A stretch of 64,000 nucleotides of DNA, from assembly GCF_013315695.1 (NCBI RefSeq), contig NZ_CP054353.1. One strand, 5' to 3'. Positions 2,632 through 54,859 of the stretch are shown here, in pieces. The stretch is from Escherichia coli (GTDB lineage Bacteria; Pseudomonadota; Gammaproteobacteria; Enterobacterales; Enterobacteriaceae). A program made the translations under genes and the position numbers. Position 1 is the stretch's first letter. Every line of letters begins with the position of its first letter. The notes under the pieces are model-generated. The model did not search any database. It saw only the letters and a program-made list of their open reading frames with translations, and was not told where the DNA came from.

Positions 2632-3882
2632 ATGTCGTTGGCAAAAGCGTCCTTGTGGACGGCGGCCAGTACACTGGTCAAGATTGGTGCCGGGTTACTG
2701 GTCGGTAAGTTGCTGGCAGTGTCATTTGGTCCGGCGGGGCTTGGGCTGGCGGCAAATTTCCGCCAGTTGATTACCGTGCTCGGCGTGCTTGCCGGGGCAG
2801 GCATCTTTAACGGCGTAACCAAATACGTTGCCCAGTACCATGATAATCCCCAACAATTGCGCCGCGTGGTCGGCACTTCATCAGCGATGGTACTTGGCTT
2901 CTCTATGCTAATGGCGCTGGTTTTTGTGCTGGCAGCTGCGCCAATCAGCCAGGGATTGTTCGGTAATACCGACTATCAGGGGCTGGTGCGTTTAGTGGCG
3001 TTGGTGCAAATGGGGATCGCCTGGGGCAACCTGTTACTGGCGTTGATGAAAGGCTTTCGCGATGCCGCAGGTAATGCGTTATCCCTGATTGTTGGCAGCT
3101 TGATTGGCGTTCTTGCGTACTACGTCAGTTACCGTTTGGGCGATTATGAAGGAGCGTTGCTGGGGCTGGCGTTGATTCCCGCGCTGGTGGTGATTCCTGC
3201 CGCCGTCATGCTAATTAAGCGTGGTGCAATCCCGTTAAGCTATCTGAAACCCAGCTGGGATAACGGCCTGGCAGGGCAGTTGAGCAAATTTACGCTCATG
3301 GCGTTGATTACGTCGGTAACCTTGCCCGTTGCTTACATCATGATGCGTAAACTGCTGGCGGCGCAGTATAGCTGGGATGAAGTGGGGATCTGGCAAGGGG
3401 TGAGCAGTATTTCCGATGCCTACCTGCAATTTATTACGGCATCGTTCAGCGTATATTTGCTGCCCACGTTGTCGCGGCTAACGGAAAAGCGCGATATCAC
3501 CCGGGAAGTGGTTAAATCGCTGAAATTCGTCTTACCGGCAGTGGCGGCGGCGAGTTTTACCGTCTGGTTGCTGCGTGATTTTGCTATCTGGCTGCTGTTG
3601 TCGAATAAATTTACCGCTATGCGCGATCTCTTTGCCTGGCAGTTAGTGGGTGATGTGTTAAAAGTGGGCGCTTATGTCTTTGGTTATCTGGTGATCGCCA
3701 AAGCGTCACTGCGGTTTTATATTCTGGCGGAAATCAGCCAGTTCACTTTATTGATGGTATTTGCCCACTGGCTAATCCCTGCGCATGGCGCACTGGGCGC
3801 AGCACAGGCCTATATGGCAACCTATATCGTCTATTTTTCTCTTTGTTGTGGCGTGTTTTTACTCTGGCGTAGGCGGGCATGA
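2632..3882 (+). CDS. wzxE: ECA lipid III flippase (polytopic membrane protein)
   Basis: 416 aa, highly hydrophobic multi-TM ORF 2 bp after wecE. Confidence 0.9.
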
Positions 3883-4958
3883 CTGTACTGATTCACGTAC
3901 TGGGATCGGATATCCCTCACCATAACCGAACCGTTCTGCGGTTTTTCAACGACGCGCTGGCCGCGACGAGCGAGCACGCGCGCGAGTTTATGGTTGTTGG
4001 CAAGGACGACGGCTTAAGTGATAGCTGTCCGGCGCTTTCTGTGCAATTTTTCCCTGGGAAAAAATCGCTGGCGGAAGCGGTCATCGCGAAAGCAAAAGCT
4101 AACCGTCAGCAGCGATTTTTTTTCCACGGTCAGTTCAATCCCACACTGTGGCTGGCTCTGCTGAGTGGTGGCATTAAGCCCAGCCAGTTTTACTGGCATA
4201 TCTGGGGGGCAGACCTGTACGAACTTTCCAGTGGCTTGAGATATAAGCTTTTTTACCCGCTACGTCGCCTGGCGCAAAAGCGAGTCGGCTGTGTATTTGC
4301 CACCCGCGGCGATTTGAGCTTTTTTGCCAAAACGCACCCAAAGGTGCGGGGCGAACTGCTGTACTTCCCGACGCGGATGGACCCTTCTCTCAATACGATG
4401 GCGAACGATCGGCAACGTGAAGGGAAAATGACCATTCTGGTGGGCAACTCCGGCGACCGCAGTAATGAGCATATTGCTGCCTTGCGCGCCGTTCATCAGC
4501 AATTTGGCGATACGGTAAAAGTGGTGGTGCCGATGGGATATCCGCCTAATAACGAAGCGTACATCGAGGAAGTTCGTCAGGCGGGGCTGGAGTTATTCAG
4601 CGAAGAAAATCTACAAATTCTGAACGAAAAACTGGAATTTGACGCCTATCTGGCACTACTTCGCCAGTGCGATCTCGGCTACTTTATTTTTGCCCGCCAG
4701 CAGGGCATTGGTACGCTGTGCTTGCTGATTCAGGCGGGCATTCCTTGTGTGCTTAACCGGGAAAATCCGTTCTGGCAGGATATGACAGAGCAACATTTGC
4801 CGGTGCTGTTTACCACAGACGATCTCAACGAAGATATTGTGCGTGAAGCGCAGCGCCAGTTGGCTTCGGTGGATAAAAACACTATTGCCTTCTTTAGCCC
4901 TAACTATCTACAAGGCTGGCAGCGGGCGTTGGCGATTGCCGCCGGGGAGGTCGCATGA
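3879..4958 (+). CDS. wecF: TDP-Fuc4NAc:lipid II Fuc4NAc transferase
   Basis: 359 aa; 4-bp start/stop overlap with wzxE; gene order. Confidence 0.9.
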
Positions 4959-9173: not shown

Positions 9174-9200
9174 CCCCGCTTCGGCGGGGTTTTTTGTTTT
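9174..9200 (+). terminator. intrinsic terminator of tRNA operon
   Basis: CCCCGC-TTCG-GCGGGG hairpin followed by TTTTTTGTTTT. Confidence 0.8.
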
Positions 9201-13538: not shown

Positions 13539-13569
13539 TAAAAAAATATCGCCTCTGAACGAGGCGATA
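13539..13569 (-). terminator. intrinsic terminator downstream of hemY
   Basis: on minus strand: hairpin TATCGCCTC-GTTCA-GAGGCGATA followed by TTTTTTT. Confidence 0.65.
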
Positions 13570-27094: not shown

Positions 27095-27997
27095 TTACTT
27101 AGCGCACTTCTTCACATCAATATTCCAGTCAGCACCAGACGCAACCTGATGTTTCTGCGCAAAATTATCCATATTCAGCGCCACGGAAACATTCAATAAG
27201 CTGTTCAGATACACCATCGGCTGGCCTTCCGGCACATCGCCGAAGCTTGCGACATATGGCATTTTCCCTGCGTATTTTTGCTGGGAACCTTCGGAAATGG
27301 TCACACACAACGTGTCGTTGAGTTTGATTCCTGCCTGATTCAGCAACTCGTCGCTGATATTGCTCCAGACGTTGCCGTACTGAATATCGAGAATTGGGAT
27401 ATTGCCCTTCACTTCACCTTTTGTTGCTTTTGCTTTCTGATAAGAAAGTTCGACAACTTTTGCAGGAAGCTCTGGCCCCACCTGTTCGAACGTGATCACT
27501 CCGGAAGCCAGACGCGCACCGGTGTAGGCATATACATCGCGACCATGGAAGGTATATGACTTTTCAGAACCTTTCAGGCGGTTAGCTTTTTCGTCGATTT
27601 CCCGGACGCTATCAATACCCAGAGTTTGTGCCACCAAAGTGAGCGTACCGTTATCTGGTGAAACGAAGTATTGACCGTTTTTGGTTTTCAGCACTACCGA
27701 TTTACGGTCAGTGCCTACGCCCGGATCGACCACGCTAACCAACACCGAACCTTGCGGCCAGTAACTGGCAGTCTGATACAGGCGATAAGCGCCTTCCCAG
27801 ATGTTATACGGTGGAATTTCGTGTGTTAAATCAAAGATTTTAAGATTATGGTCAACGCCGAATGCGACCCCTTTCATCGCCGAGACGGCACCATCTTTCA
27901 GGCTAAAATCAGTTTGTAAAATCAAAGCGTTATCCGCATAGGCGGATGATGATCCCAGACACGTTAATAAAAATAACGTTGCGAGCGTTTTTTTCAT
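27095..27997 (-). CDS. DUF62 family protein (SAM hydroxide adenosyltransferase / SalL-FlA halogenase-like) with N-terminal signal peptide
   Basis: 300 aa; signal-like MKKTLATLFLLTCLGSSSAYA; family motifs LQTDFSLKDGAVSAMKGV, DLTHEIPPYNI, VVDPGVGT, SPDNG, FHGRDV, GNVWSNI; AAGGG RBS. Confidence 0.7.
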   Translation of the reverse strand: MKKTLATLFLLTCLGSSSAYADNALILQTDFSLKDGAVSAMKGVAFGVDHNLKIFDLTHEIPPYNIWEGAYRLYQTASYWPQGSVLVSVVDPGVGTDRKSVVLKTKNGQYFVSPDNGTLTLVAQTLGIDSVREIDEKANRLKGSEKSYTFHGRDVYAYTGARLASGVITFEQVGPELPAKVVELSYQKAKATKGEVKGNIPILDIQYGNVWSNISDELLNQAGIKLNDTLCVTISEGSQQKYAGKMPYVASFGDVPEGQPMVYLNSLLNVSVALNMDNFAQKHQVASGADWNIDVKKCAK

Positions 27998-28079: not shown

Positions 28080-28520
28080 TTAACCTTTCCGCTCGACGGA
28101 AATCATGGTGACAAAAGGATAGCGTTGCCACGGGATTGCCCCGCCTTTCATATACATATGTGAAATTGTGCCATCAAGATAAAGCAGCTGCTCAACGTTC
28201 AGTTTCGCTTTGGCATAGCAGGCAAAATCATAAAAATTTGTCGCCTGCTGGCTCAACAAAAACACGGCGTTCCCTTGTTTATTAATCCCTACACCGTTAC
28301 GAATTTTACGCGAGGCGACGTTGGGATGAATACGCGGATTAATTACACCGTTTTCCATCAACAATGGCCCTGACTGCACCGCAAACTGAATCTCTTTACT
28401 GGTTTTAAAGGCATCCAGACGAACGATGCCGACTTTATCTCCCGCGACATAAAACACGCCGCCAGGACGAATAAAGAAATTCCCTTCACCTGAAGCGAAA
28501 TTTAACGCCACCTTCTGCTG
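28080..28520 (-). pseudogene. yigE: yigE (DUF2233) C-terminal fragment, interrupted by IS4
   Basis: 143-codon ORF whose upstream end abuts the IS4 left end; continues the reading frame of the fragment on the other side of the IS. Confidence 0.8.
28509..28520. repeat. 12-bp target-site duplication (left copy) of IS4
   Basis: CACCTTCTGCTG immediately outside IS4 left IR; identical copy at 29947-29958. Confidence 0.85.
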
Positions 28521-29946
28521 TAATGCCAGTCAGTTAAGCAACTGACTGGCTCTTTTTCGGGGCTGTGGGGTATTTCCAGGGCCTCTCCTTTACCACTCTC
28601 GGGAAGGCCCTTTCCCTTCTTGTCGGTAATTTCACAAGTTGTCCCATACTTGCAAGATCGCGCATCAGCTCCGGTATACGTCCCGGTGAAGCGCCCTGCA
28701 ATGTCATCAGCATTCTCATCACCATTCCGCATGATTCTGAGAAACTCAGTTGATTCGGCCAGTAACCTTTCAGATGTTCCGCCATTTTAATCATCTGATA
28801 TCTCACCAGATTATAAGCCAGTAAGACACCCCACAGCTCTTGCTCCACAAGCTCCGGTTTTTTACTTCTCAGCGTCAGCCTGCTCAGTTGCATCGTCTGT
28901 TTTATCTCCCTGTATCCCAGTTCGATTTCCCAGCGATGACTGTACAGATCCGCCATTTCTCCTCCGGGGAAGCGCATGGCGTCCGTCATCGACGTCAGCA
29001 GATGGCAGACTTTTCCTTTGCGCGTCACGGTCAGCAGGCGGGCTGTCACTTCATTTCCCAGTCCCGGCCACTTTTTTCGTGCCTGCGGGCTGGTTTTCAG
29101 CTTCACCAGATGATCGCCTTTACCCAGTTTTCTGATCTCTTCATATTGCGCTCCCTTTCTGAGAGGTATCATCCAGTGGCGGTGTTCTCCCGCCAGGCTC
29201 CAGGCATTTAACAGTCCCAGTGAGTAATAACCTTTATCCATTAACGTCAGAGTGTTATCGCCGGTTTGTTCTATAAGTTGCTCAGCAAGCTCATTTTCGC
29301 TGTTCTTCATCGTGCCGAAGGCTGCAGCCGTCAGCAGATGGCTGGTCAGTTCCATCTGGCAGACCATTTTGACCTGCGGGTAGAGCGCCGGGTTCCCGGC
29401 ATGTGTCTGGCGGGGGAAGGCTGCATCGTTCTCTGGTGTATCCGGTGTGCGCCAGAACACACCATCGATGGCCAGCAGGGTCAGGCCGCACCAGTGCGGA
29501 TGCGGCGTGGCGTTATGCCAGAGCTGCGCTGTTTTCGTGAACACGCGGCGGACAGCCTCACTTCCCAGGCGCTGGCGGGCCTGAATAACGGCACTGGGGG
29601 CAACGAAGGGGCGATTGCCCGGCAGCATGATGTCCAGGCGATTCACAATCTGGTGAAGAGGTTCTTTACGCTCAAGCGCCATGCCAACAATACACCAGAC
29701 CATCATTTCGAGGGGAAGACGGCGCTTGCGTAGCGTTACAGTACCTGATTCGGCAAGGCAACGAGAGATGAGTTCGGGGTCGAGGTAATCCCCCAGAGAA
29801 GTCAGTGGGTTACGCAGAGAATCGTAACGGGATACCAGATCAAGAGCCTGTCCAATGTGCATAAAAAAATCCGGAAACAAGTGAGCGTTTCCGGATTCTT
29901 ACACAGCCACTGGATCGGTCAACTGATCCTTAACTGATCGGCATTA
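28521..29946 (-). mobile_element. IS4 insertion sequence (complete, 1426 bp)
   Basis: 18-bp terminal inverted repeats TAATGCCAGTCAGTTAAG / TAATGCCGATCAGTTAAG (16/18), single transposase ORF, flanked by 12-bp direct repeat. Confidence 0.9.
28534..29862 (-). CDS. insG: IS4 transposase (DDE)
   Basis: 442 aa from [20 protein letters not shown]...; matches my recollection of IS4 transposase. Confidence 0.9.
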
Positions 29947-29958
29947 CACCTTCTGCTG
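29947..29958. repeat. 12-bp target-site duplication (right copy) of IS4
   Basis: CACCTTCTGCTG immediately outside IS4 right IR. Confidence 0.85.
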
Positions 29959-30282
29959 ACCGTTTTCGATGTACAAACCGAGCGGCGCATAGCTTTCATC
30001 ATAGATGCCGCCGTTCATCGCCATCTGCACCTGACCCTGACTATTCATATCCGCCAGCAGAGCATGTAACGTTCCCCACGCTTCGCCATTGGCTTTTTGC
30101 CAGTACATTTTCACCCGCTCTGTTTGAGGATTAACGGTATACGCCTGTACGGTCAGCGTCGGATCTGAGAGTGCGCAATCTTCAGCGGCAACAGCAAACA
30201 AGGGAAGTAAGGTGAGGGTGAGAAAAATCCGTTTGAGATTCAAGGTGATCATTCCTTTACCAATGAGTAGCCGATGCGCCAT
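29947..30282 (-). pseudogene. yigE: yigE (DUF2233) N-terminal fragment, truncated by IS4 (stop codon supplied by IS end)
   Basis: 112-codon ORF MAHRLLIGKGMITLNLKRIFLTLTLLPLFAVA... ends at TAA formed by the terminal TTA of IS4. Confidence 0.8.
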
Positions 30283-31602: not shown

Positions 31603-31626
31603 CTTTACGATGTCGCTGTGAGTAAG

Positions 31627-32013
31627 TTAGTGTGCTGACAGCGACATTTTAGCCGAGGGAATCGCAGATAACATAATTGTTGTGAATAATATCCATGCTA
31701 CGTTGAGTTGGACGCTTAATGAATCACATCTCACCCCTTCAATTACTGCCGAGATAATAGAAAAAAGTGTCAAACCCAATGAAATCAATACAAAATAGAT
31801 TGCCTTACATCCAGTATCTCTTATTCTTTTAGCTCCGATATTGATATTCGCATACGTATTAGTGATGACCAGAATGAAACTCAAAGCCAGGTTGATATCA
31901 TTCAAAGTTATTAATATTGTCCATGATGTTAATGTGTAGATTATAAACTGCAAACGTGATAAATGCTCAAGCCTGGATGGGTATAATATATTTCTAATAG
32001 ATGATTTAAACAT
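31627..32013 (-). CDS. yigF: small inner membrane protein
   Basis: 128 aa hydrophobic ORF in AT-rich segment downstream of corA. Confidence 0.7.
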   Translation of the reverse strand: MFKSSIRNILYPSRLEHLSRLQFIIYTLTSWTILITLNDINLALSFILVITNTYANINIGAKRIRDTGCKAIYFVLISLGLTLFSIISAVIEGVRCDSLSVQLNVAWILFTTIMLSAIPSAKMSLSAH

Positions 32014-32200
32014 TTTTATATTGTTTTGTATATGATTGGTTTAAGTGTATATACATTATTTAGAACATATAGCTTGTTATATCCATGCAATATGACAGCC
32101 TTTGTATTGATAACTATACAGTAGTAATTTAGAGTGTGTAAGTTTTTATTGAGGGGAACTATATTTAATTAAATAATATTTGTTTCTATGAATAATATTT

Positions 32201-32518
32201 TTGGTGAATGTATTCTATATGGAAAATAGTAACTTTTGGCAGTTGTTCTTGGGTAAAGAACCTTACAGCAAAAAATCTGATTTTGTTAAGGCGTGGTTAT
32301 TGTGGTGGGCTATTACCATCCTTGTTCTATTTATTTTAAGCCTGACTACGACATTAAATTTAAGAAGTATAGGTATAGGGTTAAGTTTTGGGTTTTGTCA
32401 AATCCTTGGTAGATATACGATGTCTCTAGGATGGAGTAAGTACTGGGGAGTTTTGGGGGTATTTCCTGTAACAAATATTGTTCTTTTTCTTATCTTAATT
32501 TTTTTCAAAAAAAGATAA
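32201..32518 (+). CDS. yigG: small inner membrane protein
   Basis: 105-codon hydrophobic ORF in AT-rich segment; start uncertain. Confidence 0.6.
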   Translation: MVNVFYMENSNFWQLFLGKEPYSKKSDFVKAWLLWWAITILVLFILSLTTTLNLRSIGIGLSFGFCQILGRYTMSLGWSKYWGVLGVFPVTNIVLFLILIFFKKR

Positions 32519-32563
32519 ATAAGTCAGTGGGTAGGCTTTTAAACGGCCTACCCATGTTAATGC

Positions 32564-54837: not shown

Positions 54838-54859
54838 CGCTCCCCAACTTCGGGGAGCG
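54838..54859. terminator. hairpin between convergent udp and tctA-like gene (possible bidirectional terminator)
   Basis: CGCTCCCC-AACTT-CGGGGAGCG flanked by A-run upstream and T-rich downstream. Confidence 0.6.

Follow-up and report, generated by a model that had tools for sequence, protein, structure and literature searches.

Whether the copy of IS4 that interrupts yigE in the 64-kb stretch of Escherichia coli DNA analysed here (the window) is the accident of one strain, or one of many visits of the element to a preferred position, is the question raised by this locus. The initial annotation took it for a recent, still mobile insertion and a strain-specific loss of yigE. We propose that an intact IS4 has transposed into the non-essential gene yigE at a natural hot spot, and that the insertion is very probably both recent and one of many independent events. 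The impact on annotation is small (a textbook IS4 copy inactivating yigE); the site itself illustrates well, in natural genomes, that IS4 selects its targets strongly and by two arms, and does so without a foldable terminator.

The element (28521..29946, minus strand) is 1426 bp long and has 99.72% identity (four substitutions in 1426 bp) with the annotated IS4 of K-12 MG1655, the reference being the 'insertion sequence:IS4' feature of the K-12 record. Full-length copies 100% identical to the window element are present in many E. coli genomes, where they carry the annotation 'IS4-like element IS4 family transposase'. Within the IS4 family of DDE transposases, IS4 is the founding member, and the element itself is well known. 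Its imperfect 18-bp terminal inverted repeats (TAATGCC...), TAATGCCAGTCAGTTAAG at the transposase-distal end (28521..28538, plus strand) and the GATC-containing TAATGCCGATCAGTTAAG at the transposase-proximal end (29929..29946, minus strand), match at 16 of 18 positions; the pattern, with up to three mismatches allowed, is found in only two places in the window (chance expectation 0.04). A perfect 12-bp duplication, CACCTTCTGCTG, flanks the element (28509..28520 and 29947..29958), lies within the 11-13 bp range for IS4 and occurs only at these two places when both strands of the window are searched; on the minus strand the right copy encodes QQKV of YigE. The inverted and direct repeats that had been described for the element were both reproduced on recount, and the intact 1426-bp IS4 in yigE is borne out by the recount, the K-12 comparison and the domain searches, while affiliation to another IS family is ruled out by NCBIfam, K-12 nucleotide identity and Pfam domains. 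The K-12 copy (insG, b4278) has the same 1426 bp, 18-bp ends and 12-bp duplication, but it sits between yjgZ and nanX, whereas the window copy lies inside yigE. Overlapping the distal inverted repeat there is a perfect 11-bp hairpin followed by TCTTTTT (28525..28550, plus strand), which looks like a candidate terminator for transcription entering IS4 from the distal side.

The transposase gene (insG type; 28534..29862, minus strand) is a single long, uninterrupted ORF of 442 amino acids, from the ATG at 29862 to the stop at 28534-28536, in agreement with the single intact DDE transposase claimed earlier; the ORF lister and PGAP place the start at a TTG at 29880, which gives 448 amino acids. 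The protein differs from K-12 InsG in two of 442 residues (G304A and R326L), scores 304.5 bits with the NCBIfam IS4 model NF033592 (cut-off 115), and contains the Pfam domains Nterm_IS4 (PF13006, E 7.6e-33) and DDE_Tnp_1 (PF01609, E 1.1e-31). The catalytic residues, assigned by pattern in the translation, are D133, D209 and E314 (spacers 75 and 104) with a YREK motif (Y307-R310-E314-K321), and they fit the D(60-110)D(100-150)E triad and the Y(2)R(3)E(6)K motif of the IS4 family (PMC2266710). None of the solved structures matches the transposase by sequence at E ≤ 1. In MSB1_4I the PGAP annotation of this copy is WP_000483766.1, an accession also given at other IS4 sites in several other fetched genomes; the K-12 allele differs.

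Promoter scanning, GATC listing and RNA folding of the transposase leader (29863..29946, minus strand) revealed a promoter-like site (-35 TTGACC at 29922-29917, -10 AAGAAT at 29900-29895), GATC sites at 29913, 29925 and 29936, and a hairpin (29865-29900) with a U-run after it, the ATG being covered by the hairpin/U-run feature. This hairpin folds with -35.4 kcal/mol (z -4.6), and 0 of 200 shuffles were equally stable. The promoter and the hairpin have putative roles. GATC sites and a fold-back at the transposase-proximal end are control features of IS10 and IS50; similar features are present in IS4, for which a corresponding control may be presumed.

A full-length, apparently functional IS4 has transposed into codons 109-112 of yigE, presumably by the cut-and-paste DDE mechanism with a 12-bp staggered target cut that is expected for the family; the insertion duplicated 12 bp of target and left a 112-codon stub and a promoterless C-terminal remnant. 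The N-terminal fragment (29947..30282, minus strand; 112 codons, ending ...QQKV) is closed by a TAA (29946-29944) that consists of the terminal three bases of IS4, and PGAP describes it as 'phosphodiester glycosidase family protein, missing C-terminus'. The C-terminal remnant (28080..28520, minus strand), a pseudogene 'missing N-terminus' according to PGAP, consists of 142 codons plus the 4 duplicated ones. A gene of the SAM-hydrolase family (27095-27997) lies downstream of it. In silico removal of IS4 and one repeat copy restores an open yigE of 254 codons. The splitting of the gene by IS4 and the origin of the N-terminal stop in the IS end, both claimed by the initial annotation, are confirmed. 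The fragment sizes given there (112 and 143 codons) hold for the first fragment; the second figure is an ORF-finder artefact, because the listed ORF starts at the GTG at 28511-28509, that is, at the V of the duplicated QQKV. The repaired YigE is identical to K-12 YigE (b4482) at 247 of 254 residues (97%) and matches the Pfam phosphodiester glycosidase family PF09992, formerly DUF2233 (E 6.4e-18), while the NCBIfam search yielded no model for it. With the identical neighbourhood uvrD-yigE-ysgD-corA, the repaired gene is the orthologue of K-12 yigE.

The closest genome, MSB1_4I, differs from the window at 4 positions in 64 kb, and its RefSeq annotation already gives the IS4 copy as inactivating yigE. 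Comparison with strains carrying an uninterrupted yigE, which had been suggested as a check, shows the empty site both in K-12 and in MS 21-1, the latter with 4 mismatches to the window over ~8 kb of flank. MSB1_4I holds a second, 100% identical IS4 copy, and the IS4 query matches 18 places in this genome versus 12 in MS 21-1. That the insertion is recent and the element still mobile is a reasonable inference, since the site is empty in MS 21-1 and an identical second copy exists in MSB1_4I. AF3 carries IS4 in the opposite orientation and has no mismatch to the window over 6.7 kb; a separate insertion of IS1, independent of IS4, is also found within its yigE.

The loss of yigE is indeed absent from MS 21-1; however, it is not specific to one strain. 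An orientation-blind junction probe detected IS4 at the exact same position of yigE in 35 of 5,426 complete E. coli genomes, 19 of them with the orientation of the window, 14-15 with the opposite one and 1-2 rearranged (IAI39 included); yigE is intact in 5,269 of the 5,426. Base-by-base reading covered 16 of the 35 carriers. Wherever a carrier was fetched with both junctions (13 genomes, 7 oriented as in the window and 6 the other way round), IS4 sits at the same position and the same 12 bp are duplicated. Recurrent, independent insertion of IS4 at a hot spot in yigE would explain these observations best.

What the transposase might recognize at this position can be approached through the layout of the target, AAATTTAA-CGC-CACCTTCTGCTG-ACCG-TTTT, where CACCTTCTGCTG is the duplicated core. 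The left arm AAATTTAA (28498..28505) lies at -23 to -16 from the IS end, which is the position of the A-run at other sites, and the right arm TTTT (29963..29966) lies at +17 to +20, as the mirror of the A-run. In the consensus of 58 non-redundant flanks of IS4 and relatives from other genera, positions -23 to -16 hold an A-run and positions -15 to -9 are rich in C and G, with G at both -4 and -1. The yigE target mimics a pseudo-palindrome of an A-run, ~3 bp, a 12-13-bp core, ~3 bp and a T-run, in which the core tends to begin with C and finish with G. At those intergenic sites of E. coli that were fetched, the same pattern takes the form of a terminator-like hairpin. Five other IS4 sites were read (bamD/raiA, ycaL/aroA, tas/ygdR, baeR/yegP and eno), all with duplications of 12-13 bp; four E. 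coli sites, a biased sample selected through flanks resembling those of yigE, take the form of terminator-like palindromes and likewise show 12-13-bp duplications. In one orientation, IS4 occupies the bamD/raiA site in 70 genomes. The target pattern is roughly symmetric, therefore IS4 may enter in either orientation while the same two phosphodiester bonds are cut.

A hairpin as the target at yigE was considered and rejected: the DNA folds with -3 kcal/mol (z -0.7), no better than shuffles. Three of the comparison sites do fold (-13.2, -8.2 and -6.7 kcal/mol), hence a fold is not what unites these sites, and yigE shows that IS4 can do without a foldable palindrome. Scored with a position matrix built from the 58 flanks, the repaired window offers 187,497 candidate sites, among which yigE comes 9th if the scores of the arms are summed and 1st if both arms must score, the latter criterion being post hoc. 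The top site by summed score is the terminator of a tRNA operon (window 9187), for which a synthetic occupied-site query found IS4 in 0 of 5,426 genomes. A concatenated junction probe likewise found IS4 in 0 of 5,426 genomes at eight top-scoring sites other than yigE (window 54023, 4112, 41736, 54855, 18553, 6762, 9187 and 13563), with no match extending more than 3 nt beyond the 40-nt flank. Top-scoring sites being empty, the matrix is not by itself a predictor of hot spots; the K-12 IS4 site, which is widely occupied, scores low (3.1 and -1.8). The matrix accounts for the yigE hot spot only in part.

The empty high-scoring sites bear on one alternative, namely that the recurrence stems mainly from selection for the loss of YigE, or from full neutrality of that loss, and not from target preference. 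Sites in the window with equal matrix scores are never occupied, the IS1 insertion in AF3 is a second, independent hit in yigE, and disruption of the gene occurs without visible compensation, all as this explanation would have it. Selection for gene loss would, however, spread insertions across the 765 bp of yigE, while all 35 matches of the junction probe (35/35) fall at one position, 13/13 carriers share the same 12-bp duplication, and the site has the two-armed A-run/T-run pattern of unrelated IS4 sites. Selection can supplement site preference but not substitute for it, and we regard this explanation as very unlikely. Persistence, yigE being dispensable, may nevertheless contribute to the frequency of carriers as much as the insertion rate does.

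The invariant position would also follow from a single ancient insertion, inherited vertically or spread through homologous recombination of the flanks, with no hot spot at all. In line with this, the duplication and the position are identical in all carriers read, and there are near-identical groups of carriers, maybe clonal (the OZ04xxxx and OZ038xxx records, with equal scores). Both orientations are nevertheless present, which is impossible from one event. The IS4 alleles inserted at yigE differ by 0 to 21 positions among the carriers read: the K-12 allele is the one present in VR50 and FDAARGOS_497, whereas the copy of NCTC10444 differs at 10 positions. Occupied and empty strains are only 0-2 SNPs apart over 3.6 kb of flank, as is the case with VR50 (occupied) and K-12 (empty), with 1 SNP in 3,640 bp, and with MSB1_4I (occupied) and MS 21-1 (empty), with 2 SNPs in 3,640 bp. 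Carriers of opposite orientation can have identical flanks, ECE313 (same orientation as the window) showing no difference in 3,640 bp from PEC403 and CE-O153H30 (opposite), and the carriers are spread over at least 4 local gene arrangements with different gene contents. The sampled flanks suggest that empty-site strains are interspersed with carriers of either orientation. A single origin is highly improbable in view of these data; the presence of both orientations, of differing alleles and of differing flank haplotypes argues for independent events.

That the opposite-orientation copies are in-place flips of a resident IS4, which would leave fewer independent events than counted, is hardly credible, even though IS4-mediated rearrangement is known at the locus (the two junctions of IAI39 are ~255 kb apart) and VL40 has a 53-bp remnant of an IS4 end adjoining an inverted full copy, since recombination between inverted IS4 copies inverts the intervening segment and swaps the flanks, as in IAI39, leaving no flipped copy between intact yigE flanks, the inverted homology inside one copy is limited to 18 bp with two mismatches, and the opposite-orientation carriers retain the perfect 12-bp direct duplication, as fresh insertions would.

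Returning to recurrent insertion at a preferred site, we consider it probable, though well short of certain, that codons 109-112 of yigE form a natural IS4 hot spot so far unreported, entered in many independent events, in both orientations and, in every carrier read through both junctions, with an invariant 12-bp stagger. Our literature search found no paper that mentions yigE together with IS4, and only passing mentions of IS4 target specificity. Classical IS4 sites reportedly include the pheST attenuator and a single site in galT that takes IS4 in either orientation (Habermann et al. 1979; Klaer et al. 1981; Mayaux et al. 1984). The terminator-like hot spots share with yigE an A-run and a T-run ~19 bp apart, a 12-13-bp C...G duplication and the repeated use of one exact position; unlike them, the yigE site is within a coding sequence, has a broken A-run (AAATTTAA) and forms no stable hairpin. 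IS1397 and ISKpn1 belong to the IS3 family and insert into the palindromic units of REP/BIME. They prefer, like IS4, intergenic palindromes at gene ends, a preference which makes most insertions harmless, but they differ from IS4 in transposase family and target.

IS10/Tn10, IS50/Tn5 and IS231A share with IS4 a single DDE transposase and the YREK motif, and elements of the IS4 family have a symmetric target consensus on both sides of the staggered cut (PMC2266710). IS10 and IS50 generate 9-bp duplications and have much shorter consensus cores, whereas IS4 generates duplications of 11-13 bp and, unlike these two, appears to read arms ~20 bp from the cut. If the hot spot is real, the IS4 transposase would read a ~35-bp pseudo-palindromic pattern in double-stranded DNA (A-tract, ~19 bp, T-tract) and not an extruded hairpin, and the yigE target would provide a compact natural substrate for studying long-range target recognition by IS4, distinct from that of Tn5 and Tn10.

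As a homoplasic marker, yigE::IS4 is unsuitable for clonal or lineage typing in E. coli. IS4 copies at such sites also seed large rearrangements; in IAI39, where the two yigE::IS4 junctions have been separated, the copy borders on eno at its other side.

IS4, with its 18-bp ends, duplications of 11-13 bp and strong site selectivity, is long established. By sequence, the inserted element (28521-29946) is IS4 and the gene that it interrupts is yigE. Exactly 1426 bp separate the two copies of the target-site duplication CACCTTCTGCTG (28509-28520 and 29947-29958), which were obtained alike by direct reading, a repeat finder and a script recount; the repeat finder and the recount returned just these two copies when both strands of the window were counted. 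The terminal inverted repeats, TAATGCCAGTCAGTTAAG and TAATGCCGATCAGTTAAG, are 18 bp long and match at 16 of 18 positions, and with up to 3 mismatches the motif occurs at two sites in the window, both IS termini (chance expectation 0.04). These recounts agree with the initial annotation, which had described a 1426-bp element with imperfect 18-bp ends, a perfect 12-bp direct repeat and a single intact transposase. The latter is encoded on the minus strand by the single long ORF filling the element, with 442 residues from the ATG at 29862 (448 residues according to PGAP and the ORF lister, which place the start at a TTG 18 nt upstream). It passes the NCBIfam IS4 model with 304.5 bits (cut-off 115) and contains the Pfam domains Nterm_IS4 and DDE_Tnp_1. 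Assigned by pattern only, D133, D209 and E314 fit the IS4-family signature D(60-110)D(100-150)E, and Y307-R310-E314-K321 fits Y(2)R(3)E(6)K (PMC2266710). A search of solved structures with the transposase sequence gave no match. Compared to the K-12 MG1655 feature "insertion sequence:IS4", the element shows 4 substitutions in 1426 bp and its transposase differs in 2 of 442 residues (G304A and R326L), while many E. coli genomes have full-length copies 100% identical to it. Of 5,426 complete genomes, 2,686 contain IS4, in a maximum of 32 places per genome.

In silico deletion of the element and one repeat restores an open gene of 254 codons, the product of which is identical to K-12 b4482 at 247 of 254 positions and matches Pfam PF09992 (NAGPA, "phosphodiester glycosidase", the former DUF2233; E 6.4e-18). 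The neighbourhood, uvrD-yigE-ysgD-corA, is that of K-12. The upstream piece (29947-30282, minus strand) ends in QQKV after 112 codons and is stopped, as had been claimed, by a TAA made by the final three bases of the element. The 143-codon fragment annotated with it exists as an ORF, but the GTG at which it starts is in fact the codon for V in the duplicated QQKV. The RefSeq annotation of the closest genome, MSB1_4I (NZ_LR898874.1), has the same yigE::IS4 structure. Between uvrD and yigE lies a 300-aa gene with an apparent signal peptide (27095-27997, minus strand), named by PGAP "SAM hydrolase/SAM-dependent halogenase family" (NCBIfam 133 bits, far under the cut-off of 350) and missing from K-12, VR50, O121 and AST215; it follows yigE on the same strand at a distance of 82 bp, so IS4 could have a polar effect on it. 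The segment from corA to rarD (31603-32563) is variable: the place of K-12 yigF-yigG is taken in this lineage by a hypothetical gene of 300 nt (32219-32518), and DUF943/YPO3983 genes and a corA fragment occur in other strains.

The window differs from the MSB1_4I chromosome by 4 mismatches in 64,000 bases (8823, 27376, 35160 and 35686; at 27376 it has the base of AF3, a close relative with IS4 in the opposite orientation), and hence stems from a different assembly or a sister isolate rather than from this very record. Between MSB1_4I and MS 21-1, in which yigE is intact, there are 2 SNPs in the 3,640 bp of flank that were compared, and MS 21-1 has 4 mismatches with the window over ~8 kb. The yigE copy has an identical counterpart elsewhere in MSB1_4I, between ycaL and aroA, and MSB1_4I has 18 places matching a 2,426-bp IS4-plus-flank query as against 12 matching an IS4-only query in MS 21-1, two counts that are comparable only roughly as the queries differ. 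The near-identical flanks and empty site of MS 21-1, the identical second copy and these counts support a recent insertion of an element that is probably still mobile.

A strain-specific loss of yigE, as first proposed, holds against the empty MS 21-1 but not among the complete genomes, where the same position is occupied repeatedly. IS4 with 500 bp of each flank, in the orientation of the window, gave a contiguous match in 19 of 5,426 genomes; a synthetic query with the IS reversed did so in 15, plus IAI39 with one junction; and a 58-nt probe (40 nt of flank and the 18-nt inverted repeat) detected either orientation in 35. Comparison with uninterrupted strains yielded the reconstructed empty site in 5,269 of the 5,426, MS 21-1 included. 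Sixteen loci were fetched, 13 of them carriers with both junctions, and all 13 share the identical 12-bp duplication and position, 7 in the orientation of the window and 6 in the opposite one. Their IS alleles vary: the USVAST219 copy is identical to that of the window, those of VR50 and FDAARGOS_497 have the four K-12 diagnostic bases, that of NCTC10444 shows 10 differences, and that of BEN5202 shows 21, among them seven insertions of one base each, which put the gene out of frame. The BEN5202 copy (NZ_LR740758.1, 3501-4933; 1433 bp, annotated as frameshifted) has SNPs in common with the NCTC10444 allele, and errors of long-read sequencing, not decay, may account for its indels.

Across a 3,640-bp flank (uvrD 3' end, yigE, ysgD-corA) the occupied VR50 differs from the empty K-12 by 1 SNP, and ECE313, with IS4 in the orientation of the window, is identical to PEC403 and CE-O153H30, with the opposite one; AF3 and the window show 0 mismatches over 6.7 kb of flank. 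Local gene content takes four forms among the carriers, with or without the SAM-hydrolase-family gene and with yigF-yigG, DUF943/YPO3983 or a small hypothetical gene after corA. The two orientations, the several IS alleles and the flanks identical to those of empty relatives could not all come from one ancestral insertion. Taken alone, selection for loss of yigE explains the pattern poorly: AF3 carries, besides IS4, an IS1A in the C-terminal part of yigE (NZ_OZ547117.1, ~3189-3956), so that the gene was hit twice, but selection alone would not place every insertion at one position. The survival of insertions in a dispensable gene probably also shapes the observed frequency. The economical reading of these sequences is that yigE is an IS4 hot spot with repeated independent insertion, estimated at no fewer than 8-10 events among the 16 loci read (an informal count from tree inspection). 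For scale, 967 genomes have IS4 at the K-12 site, probably for the most part inherited, and 70 have it at the bamD/raiA site, in one orientation. Among the papers covered by a literature search, none names yigE together with IS4, thus the hot spot may be unreported. The yigE::IS4 finding is correct and ordinary, the hot spot being a new address for known IS4 behaviour; the only points that merit mention are that it recurs and that the target does not fold.

The galT and pheST-attenuator sites are classical IS4 targets. Searching 100,044 species-representative genomes with the 30-nt end of IS4 returned 67 loci, of which at least 16 are true IS4 (99.4-100% over the aligned IS part), with junctions in Kosakonia oryziphila REICA_142. 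The remaining loci are IS4 relatives, ~70-95% identical overall yet with the 30-nt end kept exactly, in ~20 Enterobacterales genera (Budvicia, Buttiauxella, Silvania, Dryocola, Rosenbergiella, Yersinia and Photorhabdus among them). Loci in "Chryseobacterium" sp. 18061 (a contig junction with the same 40-nt flank as Citrobacter sp. 18056 of the same project) and in an Oscillospiraceae MAG (a 1.4-kb contig, 90% IS4) are likely contamination or mis-binning, not real host range. In the 58 non-redundant flanks from genera other than Escherichia, counted from the IS end, positions -23 to -16 form an A-run (A in up to 84%), positions -15 to -9 are rich in C/G, and G stands at -4 and -1; many flanks combine the A-run and GC-rich stretch typical of terminator-like sites. 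The whole target is visible at four other E. coli sites, e.g. AAAACGG[CAGCCTTGAGCTG]CCGTTTTTTT behind bamD, all of them intergenic terminator-like palindromes with 12-13-bp duplications. The yigE target, AAATTTAA-CGC-[CACCTTCTGCTG]-ACCG-TTTT, similarly has 19 bp between its A/T arms and a core that begins with C and finishes with G, but its A-run is interrupted. Scored on both arms by a matrix built from the 58 flanks, it ranks 9th of 187,497 candidates in the repaired window (the fourth distinct locus), ~4.4 SD above the mean, and 1st when both arms must score, a criterion adopted after the first result.

A hairpin as a requirement was rejected: the yigE target folds no better than shuffles (DNA -3 kcal/mol, z -0.7), hence a stable fold is not required, while the bamD/raiA, ycaL/aroA and baeR/yegP targets fold with -13.2, -8.2 and -6.7 kcal/mol, respectively. 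The matrix catches just part of what the transposase reads. Eight other high scorers in the window, including the top tRNA-operon terminator, carry IS4 in 0 of 5,426 genomes, and the K-12 IS4 site scores poorly. The top-scoring terminator hairpins at 9176-9187 (after the argX-hisR-leuT-proM tRNA operon), 13552-13563 (after hemY) and 54844-54855 (between the tctA-like permease gene and udp) have a single strong arm each.

IS10 and IS50 are known for protection against read-through activation and for Dam control, and the transposase-proximal end of IS4 appears to resemble them. In the window, yigE transcripts run into this end. A promoter scan finds there a promoter-like TTGACC - 16 nt - AAGAAT, with TG before the second hexamer, GATC on either side of the -35 hexamer and a third GATC within the inverted repeat. 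The predicted fold of a transcript entering from outside has a perfect 15-bp hairpin followed by a U-run (-35.4 kcal/mol, z -4.6); the U-run would also pair with the start codon region, and a transcript from the internal promoter would begin within the hairpin. We propose that these leader features probably control transposase expression. The distal end has an 11-bp hairpin that overlaps the inverted repeat; together with the TCTTTTT that comes next, it resembles a terminator acting on transcription into the element.

Two carriers are rearranged at yigE. In IAI39 (NC_011750.1, 3328832-3336773) the yigE IS4 has eno/pyrG on its other side, with the flank TTTAAAAATGCCAGCCTTCGGGCTG, and the second yigE junction lies ~255 kb away (3076677-3076734), which looks like an inversion in which the yigE copy recombined with an IS4 at the eno terminator. 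In VL40 (NZ_CM177011.1, 742-851) the duplication is followed by a 53-bp IS4 end in the orientation of the window, 57 bp of unrelated DNA, a complete IS4 in the opposite orientation and again the duplication, a composite at the yigE site that is probably a secondary IS4-mediated rearrangement.
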